A DNA stretch of 64,000 nucleotides, from NCBI GenBank assembly GCA_009015555.1, contig GCA_009015555.1_3613.1; one strand, given 5' to 3'. The stretch comes from a phage. Shown here one piece after another: positions 13,960 through 27,921 of the stretch. The translations under genes and the position numbers were made by a program. The notes under the pieces are model-generated. The model saw only the letters and a program-made list of their open reading frames with translations, made no database searches and was not told the DNA's origin. Positions within the stretch are counted from its first letter, which is position 1. The number at the start of each line of letters is the position of its first letter.

Positions 13960-14400
13960 TCAACGACTTTTGTAAATCTTTTCTGCTTCTTCCCGGCGAC
14001 GTTCGTCACGGGCCTTCCTTTCGATGGCACACGCTTCCCGGTAGGCTTTCCGCCGGGCACCGCAGATACCTTCGACCAGACGCAGAACGCGATCCTGCTC
14101 CCAACGGTTCATCCAGTCGAGATCCCCGGAGACAACAGGGGAGCCGTGGAAGTTGTCACGGTAAAGGTACGTCTTCACCTTCCGTTCGTGGTCGAGGATC
14201 ACATAGTCCACAAAGTGGCTACAGCGGTCTCGGTCCGCTTGCGATGGGTTGTCGTACACTTCCAGCTTTTTGGCAGCGATCAATTCGAGAATCCGATTGA
14301 CCGGGGGCCGGGTCATGCGCCTTGGTGTCACGTACTTATCCCATGCCCATACGAGGACCAGAAGAATAAACAAACTTGTGCAGACCCAGAATCCCGTCAT
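13960..14400 (-). CDS. membrane-anchored hypothetical protein
   Basis: N-terminal TM helix WVCTSLFILLVLVWAW. Confidence 0.45.
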   Translation of the reverse strand: MTGFWVCTSLFILLVLVWAWDKYVTPRRMTRPPVNRILELIAAKKLEVYDNPSQADRDRCSHFVDYVILDHERKVKTYLYRDNFHGSPVVSGDLDWMNRWEQDRVLRLVEGICGARRKAYREACAIERKARDERRREEAEKIYKSR

Positions 14401-15764
14401 TCCAGATCCTCCGCAATAGCCCGCAGCAGATCCAGCAGGGAGTCAGATGCCTCGATCACCTCTTCCAGGCTGTTAGCCTTGGTCTTGTCCATACGGATCT
14501 CGACGAACTTGTAGTTCAGACGAGGCAGGAACAGAGACTGAAGCTCTTTGGTTTCCGACTTCGTGATGTCGTTGGCCTTGATCGTGATGATCTGCCCGAT
14601 GAAGAAGTCCGCTGGCTTCTTACGAAGCGCGTCCGTCAAGCCGGAGCCGACGCCAACTTCCAGCAAGCCGTCACGAGTACGACAGATCAGTGCGCCGACG
14701 AGACTAGGATCTTTCTTGTGCGGCGTTGTAGCCACGACTTCCAGATCAACATCGAACTCGTTCTTCAACTTGACGCCTTTCTTCGTCTTGTTGTCGCCCC
14801 ACGGCATCTTCGCCTCTTTGAGGACGGTGCCCTCTTTCTTCTGGAGGCGCATTTCGATGAAGTGGTCGATCGCTTCCTTCAGGCTGTTGATCTTACGGCC
14901 CGTAACCATACGGAAGTTGTAACGGCGATCGACTTCCTGCACCAGCAGATCCGCCTCGATACGACGATCAGCGTAGTCGGTCTTCGACTTACGTGCGATG
15001 TACTCTTCCATCGTCACGATGTCCCAGATCACCAGGCGCACCAGATCACGATCGATGTCTGCCGGGTCTTGGTTCAGGTAGCCGTTGCCCTCAGCACGTT
15101 CCATCACACCATGCAGGCCATCATCGTCGATAACCAGACCTTCGCCATGTGCCACAAAGGCCCCACGGTTTTCTGCCGCCTGCATCAGGCGCTGCTCGAT
15201 CTCTTCCGGAGCACGGAAGTTCAGTTCCTTCCCGGAGCGGGAGCGGTAGATCACCTGCTCAGGCCACACCATGATGTCCGCATACAGGCCATCCATTTTC
15301 TCGTCGGAGAAAGCGCCCTTGTAGTTGAACTTACGCAGCAGATCCTCTTTGAACAGGGTGTAGCTCTGGTACGGAGGCTCCGTGATCAGGTCTTTCCACA
15401 CCTTATTGGTCAGAGTGGTCTGGATGCCGCACTCCAGATCTCGGTTGATGATCTTCAGAAGTGTGCCCGGCTCCTCGCAGGTCTGTACCAGTTGAGTCAT
15501 GTACGACTTCGCATCATCACCCGTGTAAACTCGCCCTGCGATGTTCTTCACCAACAGATCCACGCTTTCAGACAGCGGGGTAAGACCAGTCGTGAAGAAT
15601 GGAACCCGCAGTCCTCGGACGAAAAAGTTCAGTTCTTTGGAATATGCAACAGCGAAGGCTTGTTTCAGGCCATCGTTATCGGCATTCGCCCGCAGGATCG
15701 CTTCCTTCTCCTTGAGGGATCGGGTTGCAGACAACTCTGCGAGAATACTCGTTACGTTTGACAT
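14397..15764 (-). CDS. ATP-dependent DNA ligase-like nucleotidyltransferase
   Basis: KMDG (KxDG motif I) about 157 aa from N-terminus, similar spacing to T4 DNA ligase from memory; RNA ligase not excluded. Confidence 0.55.
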   Translation of the reverse strand: MSNVTSILAELSATRSLKEKEAILRANADNDGLKQAFAVAYSKELNFFVRGLRVPFFTTGLTPLSESVDLLVKNIAGRVYTGDDAKSYMTQLVQTCEEPGTLLKIINRDLECGIQTTLTNKVWKDLITEPPYQSYTLFKEDLLRKFNYKGAFSDEKMDGLYADIMVWPEQVIYRSRSGKELNFRAPEEIEQRLMQAAENRGAFVAHGEGLVIDDDGLHGVMERAEGNGYLNQDPADIDRDLVRLVIWDIVTMEEYIARKSKTDYADRRIEADLLVQEVDRRYNFRMVTGRKINSLKEAIDHFIEMRLQKKEGTVLKEAKMPWGDNKTKKGVKLKNEFDVDLEVVATTPHKKDPSLVGALICRTRDGLLEVGVGSGLTDALRKKPADFFIGQIITIKANDITKSETKELQSLFLPRLNYKFVEIRMDKTKANSLEEVIEASDSLLDLLRAIAEDLE

Positions 15765-16782: not shown

Positions 16783-17077
16783 CAATATGCTCCAGAACCA
16801 GAAGGTGTTTGCACCGCTTGTTGTTTGCCCAGACCAGAAGGGCCATGTCCATCCATGCAACCTGATCCGGGTCTCCGGCCACGGTTAAGTGCATGTTGTC
16901 ACAGTTCTGCCTTACTTTCGTCACAGTGAAGTCAATATTGGCCCGGTTCATCCGTTCCTCAAGATACTCCAACTGGTCGTTCAGATCAATACTCCATTTG
17001 TAAAATCGCGGTTTTTCTTGTGCCCGGTAGATCTCTTCCATTCGATCAACCACACCCTCCGCAAAGCTCAGTGTCAT
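16775..17077 (-). CDS. hypothetical protein (~100 aa)
   Basis: ORF, start trimmed to MTLSFAEGV. Confidence 0.4.
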   Translation of the reverse strand: MTLSFAEGVVDRMEEIYRAQEKPRFYKWSIDLNDQLEYLEERMNRANIDFTVTKVRQNCDNMHLTVAGDPDQVAWMDMALLVWANNKRCKHLLVLEHIDG

Positions 17078-17292
17078 CCTACCCCCTTCATTCCCGCCCG
17101 GCACTCCGGGCAATACCAAACCCCGAGACCGGGGCATTCAGGATCTTCCACGTAATTATCAGGCTTATTCGATACAGTCACTGATTGACCGATCACCGCA
17201 CCCGGTATTTTGTAGAAACAGATATGCGGCCCAACACCATAGTGAGGGTATGAACCGTCTGCACAGTTACCACACATCGCGTTTCTTCCCAC
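17074..17292 (-). CDS. Cys-rich small protein
   Basis: CGNC...CPGLGVWYCPEC. Confidence 0.4.
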   Translation of the reverse strand: MGRNAMCGNCADGSYPHYGVGPHICFYKIPGAVIGQSVTVSNKPDNYVEDPECPGLGVWYCPECRAGMKGVG

Positions 17293-17494
17293 GAGGGTGC
17301 AGATCCATATCCACAGCCAAGAACGGATTCTTACGCGCCCAGCGCTCTTCTTTAGTCTCCAGCCCGTAGTTAAGATAGGACAACAACCAACGACCCAGCA
17401 CTATCGCCAACACAATGATTACGGCAAACACAACCAGATCCAATTCGCGTTGATTAAGACCGAAAGCCACAATATCATTCACACACTGTTTCAT
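17267..17494 (-). CDS. small membrane protein
   Basis: Hydrophobic segment LVVFAVIIVLAIVLGRWLL. Confidence 0.4.
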   Translation of the reverse strand: MKQCVNDIVAFGLNQRELDLVVFAVIIVLAIVLGRWLLSYLNYGLETKEERWARKNPFLAVDMDLHPRGKKRDVW

Positions 17495-17775
17495 CAGATC
17501 ATCTCCATCGTAATCAGTACATTGTCGAGGTCATCAGCGTTAAGCTGGAGTTCAGGCTTCATACTATCTTCCACACGGTGATAAATCAACCCCTTTTCCA
17601 CATATTTGATCATCACCTCGTAATATTTCCCCAACAGGGTGTCCCATCCACACTCGTAAACAGACACCATACAGACTTTCAGGCCAGCTTTTGCTGAGTG
17701 CCATGCCTCACGCACAGCTTCCAGATGGGCTAATTCCAGTTCATCAATTTTATTACGCTGCTTATTACTTAACAT
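17494..17775 (-). CDS. hypothetical protein (93 aa); first gene of leftward block
   Basis: ORF abutting AT-rich control region. Confidence 0.45.
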   Translation of the reverse strand: MLSNKQRNKIDELELAHLEAVREAWHSAKAGLKVCMVSVYECGWDTLLGKYYEVMIKYVEKGLIYHRVEDSMKPELQLNADDLDNVLITMEMI

Positions 17776-18139
17776 TCTATAACCCTCATACGGTTGTCTC
17801 GTTTCAATGTGTGCATTCTATGATCCAATGATCCTCTTGTCAATACTTTAAATTTTAAATTTTTCATGTAAGATCTATATAAAGATCCTAAAGATCAATA
17901 GGAATCTTCTATTGTTTTCTTGTTTTTAATAATTATTATGAATGTATATGAATAATAATTATAAGATCAATAATTTATGAGTGGAACGAATAAATTATAA
18001 GATTAATAAAACCGTAGCCCGGAGGGCGAGCGTAGCGAGGTTTATAGATTCTATTATTACTTCGTGTGCCTTTCAGGGCTACATGGTTGACAACCGATTT
18101 GATTAATGAAACACTGGGTAGGGTTTCAAAGGAGGGTAT
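17776..18139. promoter_or_regulatory. AT-rich divergent intergenic control region with clustered GATC and AAGATC(A/C) direct repeats; candidate promoter hub / replication origin
   Basis: Long A/T tracts, about six GATC sites within ~130 bp, repeated AAGATC motifs, ttgaca-like -35 near 18090; genes diverge on both sides. Confidence 0.5.
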
Positions 18140-18508
18140 GTGAAGGATTTTGTTGTTCCAGAGGGTTCTTTTGTAAGCCTCCCTACTAAGTGGGGCTTCG
18201 ACTTGCCTGCTGAAGACCTGAAGCGGATGTTCTTGTTACATTTCCGATTCAAGTATTTTGCAGAGCAAGCGTTTCAGAGTGGTGAAGACGTTAGGCGTTG
18301 TTACTATGAGTCACAGGAGACCATGTGTCGCCTGTTTGGTATGTCTGAAGCATCAAGGACGAAGGTTGGAAAGTTTCTCAAGCGAATGGAGGCATCGGGC
18401 CACATTTCCATCATACGTGAGAAAGTAATGCTGTACGGTTCAATGAAGCCACGGCACTACATTGTGGTCAATGACCCTGTGCTATTGGAAAGGTATGGTC
18501 TTTCTTAG
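18140..18508 (+). CDS. hypothetical protein, possible winged-helix DNA-binding (GTG start)
   Basis: GGAGGG RBS then GTG; first rightward gene. Confidence 0.45.
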   Translation: MKDFVVPEGSFVSLPTKWGFDLPAEDLKRMFLLHFRFKYFAEQAFQSGEDVRRCYYESQETMCRLFGMSEASRTKVGKFLKRMEASGHISIIREKVMLYGSMKPRHYIVVNDPVLLERYGLS

Positions 18509-18550
18509 ACTATCTGACTGAATCTTGATAAAATGGGGGCGGAGGAACTC

Positions 18551-19201
18551 ATGAACGAAATGCTTATGCTTGGGCAGGCCAAAGCTAAAGCTGGCCTGGA
18601 TATTGATTTTGAAGACGCCGAGATTGGCAGCACCACGATTGTGGACAAGAACGGACATCCTTTCACACTCGTTGGTACTATCGCGACTGGTGGTGGGGTA
18701 GTCGAAGACCCCGAGGTAGGGAAGTGCTTCTACTTCCCCGGTACGGGATACTTCGAAACCCCTATGGTAAAGGACCTTCAACTCGCTGGAGTACCTGTCA
18801 TGATCGAGGCGGTATTTAAGTGGGACGGTGCCGCAGGAGGGTCTATCTGGGAGACTGGGAACTACCCCAGTGGACGACCACCAACACCCGGCATTTGCCT
18901 TAGTGTTGGTCAATACCCTGCTACGTACATCCAGTATTTCATGATGTATACCAACGGGTCTTGGGGCCGTGGCCTACCTCCAGCTACAACCTTCACCGGG
19001 GAATGGGAGACTGTAACCTTCCAACGGTCAAATGATGGAACGGGACCAATGGTTGTTTATCGCGACGGTGCCGAGTTCTCCAGGGTTGCCTTGGGTCCAA
19101 GCCCGATCGGTAATGGAAGCAAGCTGTCGGTTGGCGGGTCGTACACATACGGTGCCTATTGGAAGGGACGCCTGAAAAGTCTTAAAATTACACCACTCTA
19201 A
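18551..19201 (+). CDS. hypothetical protein with possible concanavalin/LamG-like fold
   Basis: GGAGGA RBS before ATG at 18551; C-terminal WKGRLKSLKI reminiscent of LamG domain ends; tentative. Confidence 0.45.
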   Translation: MNEMLMLGQAKAKAGLDIDFEDAEIGSTTIVDKNGHPFTLVGTIATGGGVVEDPEVGKCFYFPGTGYFETPMVKDLQLAGVPVMIEAVFKWDGAAGGSIWETGNYPSGRPPTPGICLSVGQYPATYIQYFMMYTNGSWGRGLPPATTFTGEWETVTFQRSNDGTGPMVVYRDGAEFSRVALGPSPIGNGSKLSVGGSYTYGAYWKGRLKSLKITPL

Positions 19202-19203
19202 CA

Positions 19204-19234
19204 AAAGGCCCTTGACGGGGCCTTTTTCTTTTTG
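19204..19234 (+). terminator. Rho-independent terminator
   Basis: aggcccttgacggggcct hairpin followed by ttttctttttg. Confidence 0.55.
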
Positions 19235-19269
19235 TAAGATCGCTTTACTTTAACTGAGAGGAGAGAGAT

Positions 19270-20160
19270 ATGATTCGTGCATATTTAGGCGGAAGTCAGT
19301 TGGACATCGAGTTCAGCACATTTGCCGGGGGCGAGAGAAACGTCCTCATCAAGGGTTTCCAATGGCCCAGTCCGTTCAATGCGGATCTGAAAGAGAAGAT
19401 GCCAGAAGGTAAAGACCTTGTTGTCTACGCCCATGTTGACAGTTCAGATGCCATCATGGACCTGCTGCTGTTTACCGACGCATTCAACCGCATGGGTCGA
19501 GGCACAGGCAACCAGGTGAAGAAGGTCTGTTATGTGCCATACATCCCGTATGCCCGTCAAGACCGAGTGATGGTTCCTGGAGAACCGCTGTCGTCGGCAG
19601 TGTTTGGAACACTTATCAACCTGTGTGGATTTGACCGTATCATTGTTGATGACCCGCACTCAGATGTGTCTCCGTCACACATCAAGAACGTTGCCATTTT
19701 CGAACAATATGAACTGGCCTTGGATATTCTTGGCCCGGGCTTCTTCGACGATGCCGTTATCGTAGCTCCGGACGCCGGGGCAATCAAGAAGGTCACGAAG
19801 TTGGCTCAGAAGGTCAACCACCGTGAAATCGGGGTTGGGACCAAGCATCGTGACCTTATGACCAATAACATCACTGACACGACTTATGCCGGGCCGGATG
19901 TTAATGGTAAGCGTGTCATCATGGTTGATGACATTTGCGACGGAGGTCGTACATTTATCGAGCTTGGTAAGGTTCTCCGTGCCAATGGTGCGAAAGAGGT
20001 TGTTCTGTACACCACGCACGGGATTTATTCCTACGGCGCGGATGTGTTTAAGGACGTTATTGATGAGGTTTACTCCGCCTATCCGTGGATGAAGAACCTG
20101 GAAGGCCGAAACGAAAATAATATTTTCAAATCTGTTGACAAGATGGTTGAGTTCAAGTAA
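19270..20160 (+). CDS. PRPP synthetase (Prs)-family phosphoribosyl-pyrophosphokinase; candidate ADP-ribose pyrophosphate synthetase (Adps) of a NARP1-type pathway
   Basis: Type I PRTase/Prs motif VIMVDDICDGGRTF and Prs-like N-terminal half (PYARQDR); strong RBS GAGGAGAGAGAT-ATG. Confidence 0.75.
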   Translation: MIRAYLGGSQLDIEFSTFAGGERNVLIKGFQWPSPFNADLKEKMPEGKDLVVYAHVDSSDAIMDLLLFTDAFNRMGRGTGNQVKKVCYVPYIPYARQDRVMVPGEPLSSAVFGTLINLCGFDRIIVDDPHSDVSPSHIKNVAIFEQYELALDILGPGFFDDAVIVAPDAGAIKKVTKLAQKVNHREIGVGTKHRDLMTNNITDTTYAGPDVNGKRVIMVDDICDGGRTFIELGKVLRANGAKEVVLYTTHGIYSYGADVFKDVIDEVYSAYPWMKNLEGRNENNIFKSVDKMVEFK

Positions 20161-20211
20161 TATTCACAACGTTCCGGGGCACATTGCCCCAATTTAACTG
20201 AGGAGATTTAT

Positions 20212-22002
20212 ATGTTACATAACGACCTGCCTATCCTGTTTGCTGACTGGTACAAACCGAGCCATATTTCCATGTACAGCAAACAGTCTGAGATCGTACA
20301 AGACAACATGACCCCACGCTCAAGCAAACACTTTCAGCACTTTTCTGACAGTGACCAGCGCGTCATGTCTGCTGGCCTGCAAGGCTTTATTAAGTGGTTC
20401 CTGATTGAACACTTCAACCGTGAGTTCTTCGGTCGTCCGAAGGAAGAAGTTATCGGGGAGTTCAAAGAGATCTGTGACCTGGCGATCGGCCCAGACATGG
20501 TTGAAACGTGGGGCTTCGAAAAGCTGCATGACCTGGGCTATCTGCCTGTTGAAATCCGCGCCCTGCCGGAAGGTACTCTTTCTCCGGTACAAGTGCCTCT
20601 GTTCACAATTCAGAACACGCACCCGGACTTCTACTGGCTTCCTAACTACCTGGAGTCAGTGATCTCCTCTGAAAACTGGAAAACCGTAACTACGGCAACC
20701 ATTTTCTGGCAGTATCGTAAGCTGGCTGAACTGTGGGCGCAGAAAACCTGCGACAACAACCTGCACGTCCCGTTCCAGATTCATTGCTTCGCTTATCGCG
20801 GCCAGGCTGGCACTCACGATGCGGCCCAGTCTGAACTGGGACAACTGATGAACTCTCAGGGCACCGACACCATCCCGGCGATCCTGTATGCAAACCGTTA
20901 TTACGGTATGAAAGGCAAGTTCGTATCCGGCTCCATCCCGGCATCCGAGCACAGCGTTGCAACAACGAACATCGGGTTCATCATCGGACGCCTCCGTTCT
21001 GAGCATCCGGAAATGTCGCTGGATGACCTGCGTTTCCACGCAGAAGTCGAGTTCCTGCGCCGATACATCACTGAAATCTTCCCGAAAGGTTTCGTGTCTT
21101 ATGTCGGCGACAGTTATGACTGGTTCCGCCTGATCACTCAGGGTGTTCGTATCCTGAAAGACGAAATCATGGCCCGTGATGGTCGTGTGGTATTCCGCCC
21201 GGATTCCGGCGTACCGGAAGACATCATCTGCGGCACACTGGACTGGCGTAAGATTGAAGACCTCGACACGGCAGGTACTCTGGAACGCGCTGCCAATTGG
21301 GCACTGGAAAGTGCCGAAGATGAAGTTCGTGAGAACACCCCGCACGGTGAATGCGGTGATGAATCCGTTGAACGTTACTTCCTGTTCGATGGCGATCTGT
21401 ACCTGATGAAGGGTGAGATTGACTGGAACCGTCACGACAAAACGTATTACTACATCGACGGTCGCCGTGTTCTGTCTTACGAAAAGGCAGAACTCACTGA
21501 TGAGCAGAAAGGTTCTGTTGAACTGCTGTACGATGTGTTCGGTGGCGACCTGAACTCCAAAGGCTATCGTACTCTGGACACCCACGTCGGCCTGATTTAC
21601 GGTGACTCCATCACCGTTGCTCGCGCCAAAGAGATCTTCGAGCGCCTGGAAGCAAAAGGCTTTGCATCGAACAACGTTGTGTTCGGTGTCGGTTCCTTCA
21701 CCACCCAGTTCAACACTCGTGATTCTCTGGGTCAGGCAGTCAAGGCGACAGGCGCGGTTATTGACGGTCAGCAGATCATGGTCGTCAAAGAGCCTAAGAC
21801 CGACCTCGGCAAGAAGTCTGCTCAGGGCTTCCTGAAGGTTGTTCGTGGTGAAGACGGTGAACTGAAGCTGGTTGATAACCTCCAACTGGAGCAAGTCAAC
21901 GATACCGACAATGAACTGCGTGTGGTTTTCCGTGACGGCGTTCTGCTGGTTGACGAAACGCTGACTGAAATCCGTGAGCGTGTCACAGCAAACCTGAAAT
22001 AA
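20212..22002 (+). CDS. Nicotinamide phosphoribosyltransferase (NAMPT/NadV) family protein; candidate nicotinamide ADPR transferase (Namat)
   Basis: 596-aa NAMPT-family translation immediately downstream of the Prs-like gene; RBS GAGGAG; no NMN adenylyltransferase seen in window. Confidence 0.8.
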   Translation: MLHNDLPILFADWYKPSHISMYSKQSEIVQDNMTPRSSKHFQHFSDSDQRVMSAGLQGFIKWFLIEHFNREFFGRPKEEVIGEFKEICDLAIGPDMVETWGFEKLHDLGYLPVEIRALPEGTLSPVQVPLFTIQNTHPDFYWLPNYLESVISSENWKTVTTATIFWQYRKLAELWAQKTCDNNLHVPFQIHCFAYRGQAGTHDAAQSELGQLMNSQGTDTIPAILYANRYYGMKGKFVSGSIPASEHSVATTNIGFIIGRLRSEHPEMSLDDLRFHAEVEFLRRYITEIFPKGFVSYVGDSYDWFRLITQGVRILKDEIMARDGRVVFRPDSGVPEDIICGTLDWRKIEDLDTAGTLERAANWALESAEDEVRENTPHGECGDESVERYFLFDGDLYLMKGEIDWNRHDKTYYYIDGRRVLSYEKAELTDEQKGSVELLYDVFGGDLNSKGYRTLDTHVGLIYGDSITVARAKEIFERLEAKGFASNNVVFGVGSFTTQFNTRDSLGQAVKATGAVIDGQQIMVVKEPKTDLGKKSAQGFLKVVRGEDGELKLVDNLQLEQVNDTDNELRVVFRDGVLLVDETLTEIRERVTANLK

Positions 22003-22006
22003 TTTC

Positions 22007-22029
22007 AGCCGCCCTTCGGGGCGGTTTTT
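22007..22029 (+). terminator. Rho-independent terminator
   Basis: agccgcccttcggggcggttttt immediately after NAMPT-like stop. Confidence 0.7.
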
Positions 22030-22047
22030 AACTATCCGGAGGATGAA

Positions 22048-22206
22048 ATGAAACTGAATGAATCTCAGTATCTGGCGGCAAGAAAGGCGTTTGTGGAAAA
22101 TTCCGTATTCGATAATATCCGTATGTGGGTGGAAGATGGGCAAATGTCAGAGGATGAGCTTCGGGTGTTGATTGGAGAGATCTTCGCTCCCGTGGAGGTA
22201 GAATGA
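22048..22206 (+). CDS. small hypothetical protein (52 aa)
   Basis: ATG with GGAGGATGAA RBS; not in ORF track (<60 aa). Confidence 0.3.
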   Translation: MKLNESQYLAARKAFVENSVFDNIRMWVEDGQMSEDELRVLIGEIFAPVEVE

Positions 22207-22394
22207 GAAACCCAGTTGCACGAAACGACTTTAACCGGGCAGCAACGCACCCAGATCGCTCTAAGCGGCCTCAAAAGACTGTAGACGAGGGTTTGCTCGA
22301 CTACTTTGCAGAAAACGCTGAGAACGTCGCATACAGCGAATATGAACGTGCCTCTACAAACGCTCCGGGCGCTCCCCTTCCACCCGGGCGTTGA
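22203..22394 (+). CDS. hypothetical protein (63 aa)
   Basis: ORF with ATGA overlap to upstream small ORF. Confidence 0.3.
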   Translation: MRNPVARNDFNRAATHPDRSKRPQKTVDEGLLDYFAENAENVAYSEYERASTNAPGAPLPPGR

Positions 22395-22453
22395 CTATCA
22401 TTAAGTCCTCCAGTAAAATGACCATATCACTTGATTAACTTACTGTTGGACTT

Positions 22454-22705
22454 ATGAATCCCTATAAACTCACTCTCAGCTTTATCACCCCTGATTACAC
22501 TTCTGAAGAACATTGTGAGCATTACCCTACCCTTCAAGACGCTCTCGATGACGCCGACGATTTAGCTTTCAGTACCGTCGGATTCCCTCTTGAGGATTGG
22601 CAAAGTGTTGACTTTGGTGAAGGTAATTACTTATACTCGTTTTACCCGAACGAGGTTGATAAAACCTCTCGCTATAAACTGGCAATCCTGAAGGAGGAAG
22701 TTTGA
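22454..22705 (+). CDS. small highly acidic protein (83 aa)
   Basis: Asp/Glu-rich composition (e.g. DALDDADDLAF, EDWQSVDFGEG). Confidence 0.45.
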   Translation: MNPYKLTLSFITPDYTSEEHCEHYPTLQDALDDADDLAFSTVGFPLEDWQSVDFGEGNYLYSFYPNEVDKTSRYKLAILKEEV

Positions 22706-22938
22706 GAAAGTTCCATTACTTAGTCACCATCGACCTGGATGATGACCACCTTGAGCAGATGGTTAAGGACCAGCCTGACCTTATCGACTGCGAGACGTTC
22801 GAAGGAGTAGCCCCGGAAAACTTCGTAAGTGTTTTCGCAGAGAAGATGACCGAAGGTATTGACGAGGCTTTACAAGAAGGTCTCGGTGACGCTGGCAACA
22901 GCAAAGTTAAAACTATTTTCGCAGGAGAATGCAAATGA
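22702..22938 (+). CDS. small highly acidic protein (78 aa)
   Basis: Asp/Glu-rich (TIDLDDDHLEQMVKDQPDLIDCETFEG); ATGA-coupled to upstream acidic ORF. Confidence 0.45.
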   Translation: MRKFHYLVTIDLDDDHLEQMVKDQPDLIDCETFEGVAPENFVSVFAEKMTEGIDEALQEGLGDAGNSKVKTIFAGECK

Positions 22939-23161
22939 ACAGCACCGAATTAGTGATCGGCTACGGAGAAGGCATTCGTAGCGAAGAGGACTGGGGAGTT
23001 TTCGATGAGCGCCCGGACCTTTAATCACCTGCCGGGGGCGGATGACCCCCGGAACCACGAATATAAGGGATACATCTGCCTTTGTTTTGTGTGCGGAAAC
23101 AAATATCTTGGTCCAAAACGCTCGGTTATGTGCAATCTTTGTGCAAACGGTAAAAAGCCTG

Positions 23162-23190
23162 TTGACAAAGAGTAGAGCTACAGGTAATCT
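23162..23190 (+). promoter_or_regulatory. Candidate sigma70-type promoter upstream of tRNA array
   Basis: TTGACA at 23162-23167, 17-nt spacer, TAATCT at 23185-23190. Confidence 0.4.
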
Positions 23191-23477
23191 GAATATGTCC
23201 CGAACGAGATGACAATCAAGTAGGTGGATGGATAAGTCAACCCGGTCTGTTAAACGACCAAAGTGCCATTGCGGTTCGGGTTGAGTTCAGCCGGATAAAC
23301 AGCGGCTCCATCGACGGCCTCTGGAATAGCGACGGTTGCTTCAGGTCTCACGACCACCCGTTACGTGAAACACGCTTTTGCTGGACGAGAAGGGGAAGTC
23401 AACCCCACGGGCATACGTCCTCTGCCCATTTCTCCCTCCCCCGGAGCGTAACAACTACCGGACTTGCTGGGAGACTT

Positions 23478-23553
23478 GCTGGATTAGCTCAGTAGGTAGA
23501 GCGCCTCACTTGTAATGAGGATGTCGCGGGTTCGATTCCTGCATCCAGCACCA
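23478..23553 (+). tRNA. tRNA-Thr (anticodon TGT)
   Basis: Cloverleaf read by eye: acceptor gctggat/atccagc, anticodon loop cttgtaa, T-loop ttcgatt, CCA encoded. Confidence 0.8.
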
Positions 23554-23559
23554 GATCAT

Positions 23560-23636
23560 GCAACGTTGCCGGAGTCTGGTAACGGCTCTCGCTGCAAACG
23601 AGATGAGCACTGGTTCGAATCCAGTACGTTGCTCCA
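23560..23636 (+). tRNA. tRNA-Cys (anticodon GCA)
   Basis: Acceptor gcaacgt/acgttgc, anticodon stem tctcg/cgaga, loop ctgcaaa, T-loop ttcgaat, CCA. Confidence 0.75.
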
Positions 23637-23637
23637 A

Positions 23638-23714
23638 GCGCCTTTGGTCCAATTGGTAGAGGCACTACATTCAAAATGTAGGGGTTCCCAGTTCGAATCT
23701 GGGAAGGCGCACCA
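23638..23714 (+). tRNA. tRNA with CAA anticodon (Leu by anticodon) but short variable arm
   Basis: Acceptor gcgcctt/aaggcgc, anticodon stem ctaca/tgtag, loop ttcaaaa, T-arm cccag-ttcgaat-ctggg, CCA; only 5-nt variable region. Confidence 0.6.
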
Positions 23715-23730
23715 AAATTTATGTAACCTA

Positions 23731-23759
23731 TTGACATAGTGTAATTATACTGCTAATAT
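23731..23759 (+). promoter_or_regulatory. Sigma70-type promoter for the small gene embedded in the tRNA array
   Basis: TTGACA 23731-23736, 17-nt spacer, TAATAT 23754-23759, then RBS and ATG at 23786. Confidence 0.6.
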
Positions 23760-23785
23760 GGATACACTAATTCAATGGGGGCATT

Positions 23786-24160
23786 ATGAGCAAGGCTGCG
23801 ATTGTAACTCGTAAGCGTGGTCGCCCAAGCAAAGAAGAGAGCACAGCAATCGCCCTTGAAAAGGCAATGCTTGATCTCCGAGGCGAATTGGCCCGTCTGA
23901 CGCCGAAGGCCATTCATACTCTCGAAAACCTGCTCACAACAGGCACAGAGAAAGTGAAGGAAACCACGGCGAAGTATATCCTTGAGCAGGCGAAAGAGGT
24001 TAACAACCTCTATACTGAAGAGGATAACGAAGACGACGCAGCAGGCGGCACAACATCTGCCTCTTCTGAAACTCACGCTGGTTCTTCTGACGAGATGAAA
24101 AATGCCATCCCGTTGACAACCCAGATTCGTGAGTATAAAGCAGTAGGCGAAGATGATTAA
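23786..24160 (+). CDS. small protein with AT-hook-like RKRGRPSK motif (124 aa)
   Basis: Own promoter, RBS and downstream hairpin; basic N-terminus, acidic Ser/Thr-rich C-terminus. Confidence 0.5.
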   Translation: MSKAAIVTRKRGRPSKEESTAIALEKAMLDLRGELARLTPKAIHTLENLLTTGTEKVKETTAKYILEQAKEVNNLYTEEDNEDDAAGGTTSASSETHAGSSDEMKNAIPLTTQIREYKAVGEDD

Positions 24161-24162
24161 CT

Positions 24163-24190
24163 GGAAGGCTCCCGAAGGAGCCTTTATTAG
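24163..24190 (+). terminator. Terminator-like hairpin
   Basis: aaggctcccgaaggagcctt hairpin followed by tattag (weak T tract). Confidence 0.4.
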
Positions 24191-24325
24191 AAGTTCTCTT
24201 TTGACGGGCACTTGTTAACGACCCGCAGAATGACGACGGTGTACAACGGCGTTTGATGGCGAGGAAGGTCTATAGGGATCAGCGCAGATCCTTGGATGTC
24301 AGGTGAGCCGTACAAAAGAGAATTT

Positions 24326-24413
24326 GGGGAGTTATTTCCGTAGAGGTAGCGGTGCAGACTGTAAATCTGTTGTCATTGCGACTCGGGTGGTTCGACTCCA
24401 TCACTCCCCACCA
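24326..24413 (+). tRNA. tRNA-Tyr (anticodon GTA), long variable arm
   Basis: Acceptor ggggagt/actcccc, anticodon loop ctgtaaa, T-loop ttcgact, CCA. Confidence 0.75.
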
Positions 24414-24419
24414 AATTAT

Positions 24420-24514
24420 AGTAGGATGGCTGAGTGGCTTAAAGCAGCATCTTGGAAAGGTGTCGGATCAGGTAACCCCTGGTCCCGGGAGTTCAAATCT
24501 CCCTCCTACTGCCA
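24420..24514 (+). tRNA. tRNA-Ser (anticodon GGA), long variable arm
   Basis: Acceptor agtagga/tcctact, anticodon loop cttggaa, T-loop ttcaaat, CCA. Confidence 0.7.
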
Positions 24515-24518
24515 GACC

Positions 24519-24595
24519 GGATCGTTAGCTCAATTGGTTAGAGCAAGGGACTTTTAATCCCGAGGTTCGGGGTTCGAGTCCCTGACGGTCCACCA
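24519..24595 (+). tRNA. tRNA-Lys (anticodon TTT)
   Basis: Acceptor ggatcgt/acggtcc, anticodon loop cttttaa, T-loop ttcgagt, CCA. Confidence 0.75.
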
Positions 24596-24760
24596 GAAAG
24601 GAAGAGGGTCCAAGCTGGTAATGCGAGAGGCGAGTCCTCAGACCAAAGCCCAGATGGAGGCCACCCTAAAGTCGTCCAACCGAAGGTCCCTGATTGAGTA
24701 ATACTTCCCCGCTTGTCGGGTACAGTTCTCAGTCACACCGGAAGGGGCGCACCCTATAAT

Positions 24761-24836
24761 TGACGGTGAGCATATAAGGACATGCGGGGGCCTGTTAAGT
24801 CCAGGATAGCTGGTTCGAATCCAGTACCGTCAGCCA
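24761..24836 (+). tRNA. tRNA-Asn (anticodon GTT)
   Basis: Acceptor tgacggt/accgtca, D-stem gcat/atgc, anticodon loop ctgttaa, T-loop ttcgaat, CCA. Confidence 0.7.
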
Positions 24837-24945
24837 ATTTGGTTCCGACAAGGTGACGGCGCACCCCGGAGCGACGCTGAAAGATGCAGGCCGACGAACA
24901 CATACGTGTACTTAATCAATAGTCATTGCGATGGCTATTCGTTAA

Positions 24946-25023
24946 GTCCTGGTAGACAAACTGGATAAAGTCACCACCCTTTCAAGGTGGGGTTTGAGGG
25001 TTCGATCCCCTCTCAGGACGCCA
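24946..25023 (+). tRNA. tRNA-Glu (anticodon TTC)
   Basis: Acceptor gtcctgg/tcaggac, anticodon stem ccacc/ggtgg, loop ctttcaa, T-loop ttcgatc, CCA. Confidence 0.75.
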
Positions 25024-25117
25024 ATCTTTTAGGTCGGTAGATTAATGAGCAAAGGCCGCTCGCTGGATTCCAACCCCAGTTCAAGGCGTTCGATTCGTCA
25101 CCTTCCTGCCAAATTCA

Positions 25118-25193
25118 GGTCCTATGGTATTAGCGGTAAACATACTCGCCTGTCACGCGAGAGTCACGGGTTCGAATCCCGTTAGGACCGCCA
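25118..25193 (+). tRNA. tRNA-Asp (anticodon GTC)
   Basis: Acceptor ggtccta/taggacc, anticodon stem ctcgc/gcgag, loop ctgtcac, T-loop ttcgaat, CCA. Confidence 0.75.
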
Positions 25194-25200
25194 CTTCAAA

Positions 25201-25275
25201 TGGGGATTAGCTCAGGGGTAGAGCGCACAACTGATAATTGTGAGGTCGGTGGTTCGAAACCACCATCCCCAACCA
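25201..25275 (+). tRNA. tRNA-Ile (anticodon GAT)
   Basis: Acceptor tggggat/atcccca, D-arm gctc-aggggta-gagc, anticodon loop ctgataa, T-loop ttcgaaa, CCA. Confidence 0.75.
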
Positions 25276-25345
25276 AACAGCCCCTCCCGGGATTGGACCG
25301 GGTTAACGGCAATCGCACACTGAGGCGTCTTCCGGGGGAACAATA

Positions 25346-25422
<77 letters not shown>

Positions 25423-25428
25423 AATTAT

Positions 25429-25503
25429 TGCGAGGTAGTTCAGCGGTAGAACAGGGGTTTCATACGCCTCATGTCGGCAGTTCGATTCTGCCCTTCGCAA
25501 CCA
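25429..25503 (+). tRNA. tRNA-Met (anticodon CAT; initiator, elongator or Ile-lysidine type not distinguished)
   Basis: Acceptor tgcgagg/cttcgca, anticodon loop ttcatac, T-loop ttcgatt, CCA. Confidence 0.7.
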
Positions 25504-25509
25504 AATCAT

Positions 25510-25587
25510 GCTCCAGTAGCCCAATTGGTAGAGGCACTTGATTTAGGATCATGTCAGCGATGAGTTCGAATCTCTCCTGGAGTACCA
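25510..25587 (+). tRNA. tRNA with TAG anticodon (Leu by anticodon), short variable arm, weak T-stem
   Basis: Acceptor gctccag/ctggagt, anticodon stem cttga/tcatg, loop tttagga, T-loop ttcgaat with only ~3 bp T-stem, CCA. Confidence 0.5.
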
Positions 25588-25593
25588 CATAAA

Positions 25594-25667
25594 GCGGGCA
25601 TGGTATAGTGGTTGTGCCTTAGCCTTCCAAGCTAATGAGTCCGGTTCGATCCCGGATGTCCGCTCCA
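25594..25667 (+). tRNA. tRNA-Gly (anticodon TCC)
   Basis: Acceptor gcgggca/tgtccgc, anticodon stem ttagc/gctaa, loop cttccaa, T-loop ttcgatc, CCA. Confidence 0.75.
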
Positions 25668-25740
25668 ATTCACGGTGAGTCACTGCCGTTAAGTGTGAAG
25701 TTAAAAATGCCCGTGGTGATCGGGTTATCTCACCCAGTGT

Positions 25741-25816
25741 AGGGGATTAGTTTAATTGGTAAAACATCGGGTTTTGATCCCGACATCGCGAGGTTCGAAT
25801 CCTCCATCCCCCGCCA
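25741..25816 (+). tRNA. tRNA-Gln (anticodon TTG)
   Basis: Acceptor aggggat/atccccc (A1-C72 mismatch), anticodon stem tcggg/cccga, loop ttttgat, T-loop ttcgaat, CCA. Confidence 0.7.
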
Positions 25817-25898
25817 CATTAATGCTCATTAGCTCTTGTCAGTGGAACTCGAACCCTTAGAGCAGGCGACACAGACGTGTGTTTTAGTGAGCATCAAT

Positions 25899-25974
25899 GT
25901 GGCCTTAATTCAGCAGGTAGAATCCCCGGTTGTGAACCGGGCAGTCGTGGGTTCAAGTCCCACAGGTCACCCCA
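25899..25974 (+). tRNA. tRNA-His (anticodon GTG)
   Basis: Acceptor gtggcct/aggtcac, anticodon stem cccgg/ccggg, loop ttgtgaa, T-loop ttcaagt, CCA. Confidence 0.75.
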
Positions 25975-25978
25975 ATCT

Positions 25979-26071
25979 GGAAGATAGGGCGTAGTGGTAC
26001 GCACCCGGATTTGAACCCCGGCCCGCTGTGGCGACCCCACGGTGATAGTTCGACTCTATTATCTTCCGCCA
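25979..26071 (+). tRNA. tRNA-Ser (anticodon TGA), long variable arm
   Basis: Acceptor ggaagat/atcttcc, anticodon loop tttgaac, long variable arm, T-loop ttcgact, CCA. Confidence 0.65.
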
Positions 26072-26092
26072 CCCCTGATCATAAGGCAAACT

Positions 26093-26785
26093 ATGTTAGA
26101 AATGTTAACAGTGGGTAAATACACCCCTAGTCCTATAATTTCTAGCCCTATGGATGCTTATTTTGAGGGCGAGAGGAATAATAAATACGGCACTGTTGAG
26201 TGGGTTGTTCCTCAAGGCGTCACCTCAATCTGCTGTGTAGTGATAGGCGCAGGATCTTCTGGCAGAAGCGGCGGTCTTTCTTGGAGAAACAACATTCCAG
26301 TTACACCTGGTGAAAAACTTAAAATGCAGGTTAACTCCACAGCCAGCGCCCTCTTGAGAGAGACAACTATCCTTTGTGCTGCCCAGTGTGGCGGCAACGG
26401 AGGAAAAACATATAACTCTGTGAACGACGGTGGAGGCAATGCTGGACAATCACCACATGGTAGAGGTGGTGCTGGCGGCTACACCGGGAATGGTGGTGAT
26501 GGGCATACGTTCACAGGTGGTCCAGGACCAGGGTCCCCAGGTTCAGGTGGCGGCGGCGGCGGAGGCGCAGTTGTGTATCTGAACGGATCATTGACACCAA
26601 CTGTCTGCGGCGGAGTCGGCATGTATGGACAGGGGTCGAATGGTGGCGCTGATAACAGCGCCGGATATCCAGGCTCCGGCGGTTCTGGAACAAGATACGG
26701 AAGAGCAGTCGATGGTTATGGTGTTGTCAGGGTTGTGTGGGGAAATTATTCATTCCCAACAAATGCCCCGAGACCGAAATCCTGA
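26093..26785 (+). CDS. glycine-rich hypothetical protein (~230 aa) embedded in tRNA array
   Basis: Start taken at MLEMLTVGKY (track ORF start at 26042 lies inside tRNA-Ser); Gly-rich GGxGG runs and C-terminal GYGVVRVVWG. Confidence 0.5.
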   Translation: MLEMLTVGKYTPSPIISSPMDAYFEGERNNKYGTVEWVVPQGVTSICCVVIGAGSSGRSGGLSWRNNIPVTPGEKLKMQVNSTASALLRETTILCAAQCGGNGGKTYNSVNDGGGNAGQSPHGRGGAGGYTGNGGDGHTFTGGPGPGSPGSGGGGGGGAVVYLNGSLTPTVCGGVGMYGQGSNGGADNSAGYPGSGGSGTRYGRAVDGYGVVRVVWGNYSFPTNAPRPKS

Positions 26786-26856
26786 TAGGGATGGTCCCTA
26801 CGAGGATCGTCTTTTGCTCAGTGGTACTCAGCATTTACTTAGTATTCAAACAATAT

Positions 26857-26943
26857 AGAAGAGTGGCGAAATAGGTAGCCGCACCGGACTGCTAATCCGG
26901 GGTCCTTCGGGGCCTGAGAGTTCAAGTCTCTCCTCTTCTGCCA
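26857..26943 (+). tRNA. tRNA-Ser (anticodon GCT), long variable arm
   Basis: Acceptor agaagag/ctcttct, anticodon stem ccgga/tccgg, loop ctgctaa, T-loop ttcaagt, CCA. Confidence 0.75.
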
Positions 26944-26948
26944 AGCAT

Positions 26949-27024
26949 GGAACTGTAGCTCAGTTGGTAGAGCGGTTGCCTGAAGAGCAGCGCGTCAGCG
27001 GTTCAAATCCGTTCAGTTCCACCA
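26949..27024 (+). tRNA. tRNA-Phe (anticodon GAA)
   Basis: Acceptor ggaactg/cagttcc, D-arm gctc-agttggtaga-gagc, anticodon loop ctgaaga, T-loop ttcaaat, CCA. Confidence 0.8.
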
Positions 27025-27066
27025 CATTCTAACAAGAATAAAATATCTCCTCTCCTTCGCCTCAGT

Positions 27067-27091
27067 GCCCTCCTTCGTGGAGGGCTTTTTT
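27067..27091 (+). terminator. Rho-independent terminator closing the tRNA array
   Basis: gccctcc-ttcgt-ggagggc hairpin followed by tttttt. Confidence 0.65.
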
Positions 27092-27130
27092 ATTTCTGGT
27101 TTCGGTGATAAAATACCCAAAGGAGGTATT

Positions 27131-27502
27131 ATGACAACTTTCATATTGAAGTACAAGAAGTACCTGATCGGCATCGGGGTCGCGGCCCTTCTGCTGTTCT
27201 CCTTTAATTGGTATGTCGGCACCAAGGAGGATGCGGCTTATGACCGTGGCTTTCAGTATGCAAACACCCAGTGGGAGAAAAAGGGAAAAGAGTACGTTGA
27301 TCTTATCGACAAAGGTAAGGCTGACAACACGGCTCTTAATGAAGAACTGGCTCGGGTATCTGAGGAAAAGCGTAAGCTGGAAGAAGCCCGCCGTCATAAT
27401 GTAAACGACAAACAGGTCGAATACAACAAAACTGAAGCCGCCCGGAAGAAAGGGTTGGACGATGACTTTGTGGATCTGTACAACGAATCCTTGGGGGACT
27501 GA
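27131..27502 (+). CDS. i-spanin-like (Rz-like) inner-membrane lysis protein
   Basis: AAAGGAGG RBS; N-terminal TM helix LIGIGVAALLLFSF then charged coiled-coil region. Confidence 0.58.
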   Translation: MTTFILKYKKYLIGIGVAALLLFSFNWYVGTKEDAAYDRGFQYANTQWEKKGKEYVDLIDKGKADNTALNEELARVSEEKRKLEEARRHNVNDKQVEYNKTEAARKKGLDDDFVDLYNESLGD

Positions 27503-27816
27503 TGAGAAAATTTATTCTCGGAATGTTCATGGTTCTGGCACTGTCAGCGTGCAGCAACAAAGACAGAATCCCAGAGGTTGCCTTCAAGGGCACCACGGTA
27601 GAAGACCTTGTAGATAAGCCGGACCGAGAGCTAATGCGTAAGGCTCCACCAAAGCAGTACCTCAAGAAAGGTACAGACAACGGTGAAGGCGCGGTTGTTA
27701 TAAGTAACAACAACTTGCGGGCAGCGACAGTCGAGCGCAGGCTCGAAGACCTCCAGCAATACGTCTGCAACCTCTTCCAAGACCCAGTTGGGGAAGTCTG
27801 CGTAAAGGGTAAGTGA
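27502..27816 (+). CDS. o-spanin-like (Rz1-like) outer-membrane lipoprotein
   Basis: Lipobox LALSAC after signal peptide; ATGA overlap with upstream i-spanin-like gene. Confidence 0.62.
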   Translation: MRKFILGMFMVLALSACSNKDRIPEVAFKGTTVEDLVDKPDRELMRKAPPKQYLKKGTDNGEGAVVISNNNLRAATVERRLEDLQQYVCNLFQDPVGEVCVKGK

Positions 27817-27824
27817 TTGTGCCA

Positions 27825-27858
27825 AAAGGCTCTCCATACGTGGAGGGCCTTTTCTTTT
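27825..27858 (+). terminator. Terminator-like hairpin with T-run
   Basis: ggctctcca-tacg-tggagggcc followed by ttttctttt; lies inside the TTG-initiated track ORF, supporting the later terminase start. Confidence 0.5.
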
Positions 27859-27921
27859 AGGTCACTTTGTGATAATATACCTACTATCGAAGCATGTCAA
27901 TTTATTTATTCAGGAGAGTTA

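Follow-up and report, generated by a model that had tools for sequence, protein, structure and literature searches.

GATC-containing repeats have precedents in oriC, P1 oriR and Vibrio oriCII; on chromosome II of Vibrio cholerae, the RctB 11/12-mers contain GATC, and binding requires their methylation. In RepA_N replicons, the iterons take the form of direct repeats that are semi-palindromic, with inverted sub-repeats of 8–13 bp (PMC7145576). No origin, initiator or early-to-late control element has so far been defined for the rV5-like phages (Vequintavirinae), a large group that features in biocontrol, phage therapy, transduction and ToxIN-escape studies. The DNA considered here is a stretch of 64 000 nucleotides from a phage contig (GCA_009015555.1_3613.1), referred to below as the window, and in particular its AT-rich intergenic region at 17776–18139. 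This region contains approximately 245 bp of strongly conserved single-copy cis elements flanked by two promoters, and includes the least stable DNA of the genome of the related phage CR3. The central block may be a replication origin-type cassette with an autoregulated initiator-like gene, which is the leading reading and is put forward tentatively.

A 1.2-kb query around the region matched Cronobacter phage CR3 and phage PBES 02 at 98.7–98.8%, and other Certrevirus at 88–96%. By this measure the window is a CR3-like Certrevirus sequence. It maps to CR3 120,185–149,273 joined to 1–36,019, and the open reading frames (ORFs) that flank the region are the counterparts of CR3 gp253/gp254 and phiTE_191/192. 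The initial annotation of this DNA had described an AT-rich divergent region of about 360 bp between a leftward block and a rightward operon, in agreement with the 364 bp and 31.9% GC (116 G+C) found here. It had also proposed a promoter hub, and two outward sigma-70 promoters, conserved in orthologues, are indeed predicted. No description of the region was found in the searchable literature. The features of the locus are as follows.

17494–17775, minus strand: first leftward gene, 93 aa, PHROG 12865, no Pfam match.
17776–18139: intergenic region, 364 bp, bounded by the start of the 93-aa ORF (minus strand) and the GTG of the 122-aa ORF (plus strand).
17815–17843, minus strand: P_left, putative sigma-70-type promoter; −35 TTGACA at 17843..17838, 17-bp spacer, −10 TAGAAT at 17820..17815.
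17844–17868, minus strand: A/T-only tract directly upstream of the P_left −35.
17870–17896, plus strand: three tandem TA(A)AGATC repeats, starting at 17870, 17882 and 17891, with one GATC each.
17896–17914, no strand assigned: inverted repeat CAATAG-N7-CTATTG, conserved in Certrevirus.
17912–17927, plus strand: T-rich tract TTGTTTTCTTGTTTTT, with two TTGTTTT units, strand-asymmetric.
17925–17966, plus strand: semi-palindromic unit 1; A/T-only arms at 17929–17939 and 17952–17962 around the asymmetric centre GAATGTATATGA, then TAAGATC at 17962–17968.
17970–17998, plus strand: semi-palindromic unit 2; arms ATAATTTAT and ATAAATTAT around GAGTGGAACGA, then TAAGATT at 17998–18004.
18006–18045, plus strand: GC-rich stem element; closing stem ATAAAACC/GGTTTAT, inner hairpin GCCC-GGA-GGGC at 18017–18027; GAGCGTAGCGA.
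18046–18063, plus strand: region C, AGATTCTATTATTACTTC; a variable 12-mer that covaries with the neighbouring winged-helix allele.
18064–18084, plus strand: hairpin/palindrome D, GTGTGCC-TTTCAG-GGC(T)ACAT, with 2 bp between it and the P_right −35.
18087–18115, plus strand: P_right, putative promoter; −35 TTGACA at 18087–18092, 17-bp spacer, TG at 18107–18108 (TGn), weak −10 AACACT at 18110–18115.
18129–18136, plus strand: putative ribosome-binding site ahead of the GTG at 18140.
18140–18508, plus strand: first rightward gene, 122 aa, GTG start; predicted winged-helix DNA-binding protein, replication-initiator-like.

The core of the region (17844–18010) is only 17.4% GC, and the least stable 100-, 150- and 200-bp stretches of the whole 149-kb CR3 genome lie here (z about 7). 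The 150-bp stability is −1.041 kcal/mol per bp, against a CR3 mean of −1.422 ± 0.054 and a next lowest value of −1.203. GATC starts at 17822, 17830, 17872, 17884, 17893 and 17965, giving six sites in 147 bp, where about six in some 130 bp had been noted initially. If the 385 sites of the window were scattered uniformly, finding six GATC somewhere within 150 bp would not be unusual (P = 0.46). This uniform-placement statistic was replaced by composition-aware dinucleotide shuffles, in which 1.26 sites are expected in the region and none of 1000 shuffles reaches the six observed. Over 16 orthologous regions, 70 GATC are observed against 17.4 expected, and the enrichment over local composition is approximately four- to fivefold both here and across these orthologues. 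AAGATC occurs four times (starts 17870, 17882, 17891 and 17963); of the AAGATC(A/C) units previously proposed, the one near 17840 does not exist, TGTCAA at that position being the complement of a −35, and the one near 18000 is AAGATT (17999). The AAGATC units share one orientation, GATCTT not being present in the region, and three AAGATC within 40 bp occur only at this place in the complete CR3 genome, on either strand. Since the sites at 17822 and 17830 lie within the P_left spacer and are not conserved in the A7_1 group, they are to be regarded as incidental, and the meaningful GATC cluster would comprise 17870–17896 with the dispersed copies. The sequence observation itself is real and singular.

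In the window as a whole, GATC is over-represented (385 sites versus 296 ± 16 from shuffles), and Dam sites are not avoided. Its densest GATC run, eight sites in 183 bp at 14868–15050, falls within a DNA ligase gene (ORF 14397–15764, minus strand), where the cluster at 14927–15050 is as dense as that in the region; this run is probably a codon or composition effect. Because an equally dense run is found in a coding gene, GATC density alone is not diagnostic.

Positions 17838–18042 are almost invariant in ten Certrevirus genomes, including those in which the downstream sequence and gene are strongly diverged. Conservation of the core exceeds that of third codon positions in the adjacent gene (0.89 versus 0.83 in POP15; 0.69 versus 0.57 in A7_1), also in relatives whose flanking protein is 73–75% identical. 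Judged by these comparisons, the array between the promoters is under purifying selection. The TA(A)AGATC repeats are spaced by 12 and 9 bp in the window, and across 10 Certrevirus sequences the first two do not vary. Units 1 and 2 together form a direct repeat with a period of approximately 40 bp; their inverted arms measure 9–11 bp, and those of unit 1 are 100% complementary. The GC-rich stem element is 100% conserved in 10 Certrevirus sequences, apart from one loop insertion in one of them. A 41-aa ORF at 17981–18106, similar to a coding sequence annotated in F1M1E, was considered as a gene and rejected; it contains stops or frameshifts in phiTE, KaOmega, PcCB7V and P7_Pc and is, on this pattern, almost certainly not a gene.

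The same gene order, with small leftward genes, an A/T-rich gap, the winged-helix gene and then genes for phosphoribosyl pyrophosphate synthetase and NAMPT, is kept in Certrevirus, Seunavirus (PVP-SE1), Mydovirus (KB57), Henunavirus (Hena1) and Avunavirus (Av-05). It is also kept in the unclassified SSBI34, A7_1 group and Kashira, and in the Stephanstirmvirinae phage FBKp34. A cluster of (A/T)AGATC(T/A) sites, varying in number and spacing and often the full palindrome AAGATCTT, is found in SSBI34, A7_1, UPEC06, PVP-SE1, KB57, Av-05 and FBKp34, and just one or two such sites are left in the gaps of Hena1 and Kashira. In PVP-SE1, the units are 13 bp long, three in tandem, and start with AGATC (GATC at 139, 152 and 165). 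The distance from the GATC cluster to the P_right −35 is 195–216 bp in the window versus 82–139 bp in PVP-SE1. Most gaps examined have a TTGTTTT(N)TTGTTTT-like tract after the cluster, and all except SSBI34 have a hairpin before the conserved −35. The arms of this hairpin D show compensatory changes (TGTGCC/GGCACA, TATGCC/GGCATA, TATTCC/GGAATA, TGTCCCC/GGGGACA), and several copies contain T-G pairs, on the plus strand only. In L025, A7_1, Kashira and L023, the ~40-bp units likewise have arms with compensatory changes, and their centres remain GAnTG..nGA; in L023, a metagenomic sequence, the arms of unit 2 differ in sequence yet remain complementary. Unit 1 is approximately 94% identical in Serratia phage Kashira, despite a winged-helix protein that is just 39% identical.

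A further sequence (JAAETK010001392.1, GCA_024228455.1; L041:800–1100) has three hairpins of the form TGTTCCC-loop-GGGAACA, then ATTAG, upstream of a 233-aa two-domain homologue of the winged-helix protein. The same kind of motif is found in PVP-SE1 (ATTCCC...GGGAAT AATTAG) and in FBKp34. By these occurrences, the hairpin-plus-ATTAG element is widespread and linked to the winged-helix gene family.

Within CR3, the elements of the block are unique to the locus except for one duplicated module of approximately 130 nt, in which a diverged inverted-repeat unit is joined to TTATAAGATC, the GC-rich element, region C and hairpin D. The second copy is inverted, on the minus strand at CR3 74,496–74,606 (L032:24496–24606), about 64 kb away and outside the window. 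It lies between gp114 and gp115, immediately behind the UP-like tract that belongs to an early promoter facing outward, and its direction is antisense, into a gene's 3' end; this second locus is conserved in all Certrevirus. Two metagenomic sequences, L023 and L024 (IMG/VR 3300000333_000061 and _000177), contain three tandem modules approximately 60–400 nt upstream of the winged-helix gene. The motif TTATAAGAT was considered as a general phage promoter motif and rejected, as CR3 has it at the two module loci and nowhere else. Ten copies of about six independent types preserve the closing stem of the GC-rich element through compensatory changes, with the variants AAAACC/GGTTT, AACACC/GGTGTT, ATAAAAC/GTTTTAT, ATAAAATA/TATTTTAT and ATAAACCC/GGGTTTAT, and with Watson–Crick pairs only. 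These pairs were counted on a manual alignment; RNAalifold on a MAFFT alignment returned the inner hairpin only, with the arms out of register.

Within each phage, both loci have an identical region C 12-mer, or one with a single-base difference, whereas between lineages the 12-mer differs:

CR3, KaOmega and phiTE, region C: TATTATTACTTC
F1M1E, region C: TATTATTGT(C/T)TT
CR9, region C: T(T/C)ATATACTCTT
POP15, region C: TAGTATAGTCTT

The remainder of the module retains locus-specific differences. The winged-helix proteins of CR3, KaOmega and phiTE are 99, 86 and 83% identical to that of the window, versus 57, 51 and 61% for F1M1E, CR9 and POP15, so that the lineages with a different region C are exactly those with a different winged-helix protein. 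Because region C covaries with the allele, region C and hairpin D together are a candidate binding site of the winged-helix protein, and we infer that the protein binds there specifically.

An AlphaFold model of the 122-aa protein, built with 16 homologues, is of high confidence (pLDDT 90.2) and predicts a single domain with a long helix, a helix-turn-helix (HTH), a wing formed by a long beta-hairpin, and a helix at the C-terminus. The structures that it matches best are DNA-binding N-terminal domains of RepA_N-type initiators. Two of these structures, 4PTA (staphylococcal RepA) and 4RO3 (RepA of the satellite PLE), are N-terminal domains of RepA_N-family initiators that are structurally related to the DnaD N-terminal domain (PMC7145576). 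Structural-match scores were 6.8–7.8 for ORC2/Cdc6 winged helices, 6.8 and 6.2 for the DnaB and DnaD N-terminal domains, respectively, and about 6 for MarR-type regulators. The top PDB match in Foldseek was 4pql_B ('N-terminal domain of DNA binding protein'), which we take to be from the same staphylococcal RepA family and study. Against viral models (BFVD), Foldseek matched the N-terminal domains of 200–350-aa phage proteins labelled either as a 'replication initiator' or as a 'replicon initiation' protein, together with generic HTH proteins. An exhaustive profile search gave 26 relatives, nine of which are 220–334 aa long with an extra domain, C-terminal in most; one two-domain relative matches HTH_36 and, weakly, Replication protein C (RP-C). 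The genomic contexts of the remote homologues were short or uninformative contigs.

At the sequence level, searches of PDB, Pfam and PHROGs with both flanking proteins returned nothing specific. The 122-aa protein gave weak generic HTH profile matches, including weak matches to MarR, ArsR and TrmB profiles, no sequence-level RepA_N match, and a PHROG without known function; its orthologue in PcCB7V is annotated as a transcriptional regulator. Homologues of the 93-aa protein were found by tblastn in 31 records, from Certrevirus, SSBI34 and the A7_1 group, and only in phages that also have the AT-rich inverted-repeat units.

The two outward-facing sigma-70 promoters are very probably real. P_left matches the consensus at 11 of 12 positions, with a predicted transcription start near 17808. 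Its position weight matrix (PWM) score is the highest in the window, and is at or near the top in 11 of the 12 orthologues scanned. P_right scores 13.1 in the window and ranks first or second in 11 of the 12; its −10 ends 24 nt ahead of the GTG, and transcription would start near 18122. It is found in 21 of 22 orthologues, 53–76 nt before the annotated start codon except in F1M1E, where the annotated start is 33 nt downstream. The −35, the spacing and mostly the TG of P_right are conserved, with variation in the spacer and −10; the hexamers of P_left are kept, with drift of the spacer in SSBI34 and A7_1. Hexamers and spacing are kept while spacers drift, which is the footprint expected of real promoters. 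In PVP-SE1, KB57 and Av-05, a third strong promoter (PWM 11–13.2), back to back with P_left, reads into the GATC/T-rich block. The only candidate reading into the block in the window is weak (TTTAAA-16-TAAGAT, 17847–17874, 8/12, our own reading).

The Certrevirus early-promoter consensus is AAAA(N3-4)TGTTGAC(N17-19)TATAAT with an UP element (PMC7344957); the CB7 paper lists only early promoters (PMC7344957). The tract at 17844–17868 resembles the UP element of this consensus and is a putative UP-like element; a comparable tract lies ahead of the promoter at the second module locus. The annotated phiTE_191 (375 bp) begins 93 bp upstream of the point where the conserved ORF of 282 bp does, and overruns the leftward promoter.

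In CR3, a plus-strand block at 1–34,055 contains late genes, and is followed by a minus-strand block (34,103–69,004) that includes the polymerase and primase–helicase, a plus-strand block (69,129–92,267) of small early-type genes, and a minus-strand block (92,825–138,053). From 138,418, a plus-strand block contains NAD-metabolism genes, tRNAs and spanins, and then the terminase gene. By block orientation, the region is one of two divergent junctions in the Certrevirus genome. The other, at CR3 69.0–69.1 kb, is 125 bp long and has no A/T island. The CB7 (PMC7344957) and rV5 (PMC3606486) papers report the same four-block layout and a GC skew that tracks gene orientation. At 22028–22203, the window has about 175 bp in place of approximately 727 bp of CR3 that include gp258 (Pfam PF01555, N6_N4 DNA methylase), and this phage appears to lack the gp258 methylase.

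If the central block is an origin, the 122-aa winged-helix protein would bind region C and hairpin D (18046–18084), just upstream of its own −35. Further factors would assemble on the invariant A/T-rich part (TA(A)AGATC repeats, T-tract and ~40-bp units), and the duplex would open there, aided by transcription from the flanking promoters. The T7-gp4-like primase–helicase of the phage would then load onto the opened DNA. The GATCs of the repeats would make occupancy dependent on Dam methylation, as in oriC, P1 oriR and Vibrio oriCII. Plausible support comes from the singular melting-prone island with its unique repeat clusters and iteron-like units of variable copy number, and from the initiator-like gene alongside, the deep conservation of this linkage and the promoter-into-A/T layout in three genera. 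The origin reading is strengthened in particular because the least stable stretch is combined with semi-palindromic repeats and a RepA_N-like winged-helix neighbour.

A number of observations weigh against an origin. The initial annotation had likened the region to Dam/SeqA-regulated origins, and the enrichment of GATC in the least stable DNA is upheld. However, there is no exact DnaA box (TTWTNCACA) in 17776–18139, where a single one-mismatch match occurs (TTATTCATA, 17947–17955, minus strand); exact boxes number five in the whole window, one of them within the left gene at 17594. A Dam/SeqA-regulated origin is thus a plausible and reasonable analogy that fails the DnaA-box test. The 122-aa protein is one-domain, without a second domain for helicase recruitment, and the structural margin of initiators over regulators in the model comparison appears modest. 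The winged-helix alleles differ by 40–50%, yet the repeats and the AAGATC cluster do not change with them; the protein may therefore bind only region C and hairpin D, in an operator-like manner. No homologue of the gene or region was detectable in rV5-type Vequintavirus, which replicate, and phages with T7/T5-like replisomes are not known to need an initiator protein. The GC-skew check that had been suggested does give a minimum at about 18,000 in the window, but this is confounded by the switch in transcription direction; because skew flips with transcription direction (PMC3606486, PMC7344957), the minimum is not evidence of an origin. The authors of the rV5 study sought an origin by skew and could not separate it from transcription switches (PMC3606486).

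There is also a rival site. At the convergent junction CR3 92,267–93,805 (L032:42267–43805), approximately 1.5 kb of nearly non-coding DNA contains at least seven GAGAAT(G/C)ATTCTC palindromes, an 18-bp inverted repeat that is perfect and, among the 150-bp stretches of the genome, the one that ranks second for low stability. Conservation of the site extends across the genus, 58 nt of it are similar to terminal regions of T5-like phages, and the record of PBES 02 begins inside it. This 92–93 kb region may be an origin, pac or another cis site. In the transcriptome and origin literature on the subfamily, the sole relevant item found was a transposon map of Bas54 (Vequintavirinae), in which an intergenic region of ~2 kb between oppositely transcribed genes has no transposon insertions (preprint 10.1101/2025.11.20.689424). 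The rival CR3 region may correspond to this transposon-free region, although homology could not be established.

A transcription-only switch is nearly as likely as an origin, though still short of probable, and the operator-repeat alternative given in the initial annotation is as alive as the origin that it also proposed. Here, the block would be an operator/enhancer array for the divergent promoters, with no replication role. The winged-helix protein would be an ordinary autoregulator acting at region C and hairpin D, and the AAGATC repeats and inverted-repeat units would bind a host nucleoid protein or an early phage protein, the 93-aa product being a candidate; early transcription would be boosted or shut off, possibly in a Dam-sensitive manner like the Mu mom promoter. 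The position of the block between two conserved promoters, the abutment of hairpin D on the −35 and the covariation of region C with the protein allele all fit such a switch. So do the restriction of the 93-aa gene to lineages having the inverted-repeat units, the second module copy likewise just upstream of an early promoter, and the existence of a rival origin site elsewhere in the genome. Small winged-helix proteins are most often regulators, as the PcCB7V annotation and the weak MarR/ArsR/TrmB matches would have it, whereas the best structural matches are initiators. Because the other divergent junction is not an A/T island, divergent promoters do not explain the extreme composition. Moreover, the distance of the GATC cluster from the promoters varies widely between lineages, unlike that of a phased activator site, and both predicted starts are at least 120 bp away from the inverted-repeat units. 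The two readings overlap, as initiators commonly autoregulate via sites at their origin.

It is improbable that the block instead acts as a structured RNA, with the plus strand of the central block transcribed rightward as a leader for the long rightward operon or as a two-copy small RNA. Transcription would come from a weak internal promoter (e.g. TTATGA-17-TAAGAT, 17975–18003) or from an upstream one as in PVP-SE1, and the functional elements, as RNA, would be the A/U hairpins, GC-rich stem element and hairpin D. At 17920–18090, the RNA of the plus strand folds at −47.8 kcal/mol (z −4.7), better than the minus strand (−30.7, z −3.5), and compensatory changes keep the stems while the loops stay conserved. 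The plus-strand T-G pairs, the two module copies per genome (three in tandem in L023) and the strong promoter reading through the block in PVP-SE1, KB57 and Av-05 point the same way. However, no convincing promoter for such an RNA was found in Certrevirus, the best internal candidates matching at 7–8 of 12 positions, and there is no terminator after the block. An Rfam 15 search of 17000–19000 (E ≤ 10) gave only chance-level matches (E ≥ 1.3), far below gathering scores. The second-locus module is antisense to the 3' end of a gene, the closing stems have Watson–Crick pairs only, and stems of 9–11 A-U pairs are weak as RNA. In phiTE, plasmid over-expression of the orthologous fragment 99,267–99,536 (269 bp), used as a negative control, was without effect in a single assay of ToxIN escape, giving no anti-ToxIN activity (PMC3475682). 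Very unlikely is some other DNA transaction site, such as a P1-like Dam-dependent pac, or nicking or injection control, with the GATC hexamers as recognition elements. P1 pac has clustered GATC-containing hexamers and needs Dam methylation. Both phiTE and CB7 package by the headful mechanism and have circularly permuted genomes, and phiTE digests show a candidate pac fragment (PMC3475682); there is also a near-IHF (integration host factor) core, ATCAATAATTTA, at 17966–17977. Against this, the region sits approximately 11 kb upstream of the large terminase gene and not in or next to a small terminase gene, and the repeats are AAGATC in one orientation and not, as at P1 pac, TGATC(A/G) hexamers in two sets on either side of the cut region inside the small terminase gene. 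None of the records in the collection begins at the region, whereas PBES 02 starts in the 92–93 kb non-coding region.

The possibility that the block corresponds to the pseudo-ToxI of phiTE was rejected, as the published locus (phiTE 106,714–106,772) is 7 kb away and the orthologous fragment was the inactive control. A repeat with 36-bp spacing showed no likeness to the ToxI sequence used for comparison. By the same comparison, 17000–28000 of the window, which is syntenic with the phiTE escape locus, has no ToxI-like or pseudo-ToxI array, and the CR3-like phage seems to be without an antitoxin mimic.

What was an anonymous gap can now be divided into testable parts, namely two promoters, a GATC cluster, two iteron-like repeats, a covarying stem and an initiator-like protein. 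If the block is an origin, it would be the first defined for the subfamily and would extend RepA_N-like initiators to virulent enterobacterial phages, here a Gram-negative myophage; it would also provide an engineering handle, e.g. for minimal replicons or replication-dependent reporters. If its role is regulatory, it would be the main switch of one early operon and of an operon of approximately 45 kb running into late genes.

Compared with the unwinding region of oriC and the core of the P1 plasmid origin, the block is likewise A/T-rich and easily melted, with tandem short GATC repeats. Its first unit, AAGATCTAT, is presumably identical to the start of the left 13-mer of oriC, and PVP-SE1 has three units exactly 13 bp apart. 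The setting is also shared, the hosts being Dam-positive enterobacteria, and CB7 DNA appears Dam-methylated, with ClaI resistance in a Dam-like pattern (PMC7344957). In contrast to both origins, the region has no DnaA boxes, a period of 12/9 bp rather than 13, and, within one mismatch, no match in the window to the oriC 13-mer GATCTnTTnTTTT, and it belongs to a virulent phage with its own replisome.

The RepA_N replicons provide the closest structural parallel for the protein, since the best fold matches of the 122-aa protein are the N-terminal domains of the pSK41/pTZ2162 RepA and of RepA of the V. cholerae satellite PLE. The two ~40-bp units with inverted arms of 9–11 bp resemble RepA_N iterons, and the gene adjoins non-coding repeats, as in PLE. 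Unlike the RepA_N arrangement, the centres are GAnTG..nGA and not poly-A, there are just two repeats, the protein has an N-terminal domain only, and it is region C, rather than the repeats, that covaries with the allele.

Dyad repeats beside an A/T-rich stretch, with flanking promoters that could aid opening, are also features of lambda ori, T4 oriF/ori(uvsY) and the T7 primary origin, and the promoter reading into the A/T-rich block in PVP-SE1, KB57 and Av-05 reproduces the T4/T7 layout of a promoter plus an unwinding element. The primase–helicase of the present phage is likewise T7-gp4-like (PMC3606486). In the window, by contrast with lambda, T4 and T7, the strong promoters point away from the block, and there is no O-like helicase-recruiting initiator.

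Approximately three GATC in presumed protein-binding DNA upstream of a promoter recall the Dam-sensitive promoters Mu mom/OxyR, pap/Lrp and agn43. By our own reading, the ATAG...CTAT ends of CAATAG-N7-CTATTG resemble an OxyR half-site at 8 of 10 specified positions. The present locus differs in having more elements, a far larger conserved block, an unconserved distance to the promoter and no established match to a complete OxyR or Lrp site. Vibrio oriCII is a direct precedent for iterons that contain GATC, although its initiator family and repeat sequence are unrelated to those of the region. The most far-reaching reading, which is doubtful on present sequence data, is that the block at 17870–18084 and the 122-aa gene are the origin and initiator of Certrevirus and allied Vequintavirinae. 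These would have a minimal RepA_N/DnaD-like protein consisting of the N-terminal domain only, GATC repeats tied to Dam, and in the module a new cis element, either a DNA hairpin or an RNA, that couples two sites in a manner comparable to P4 ori and crr.

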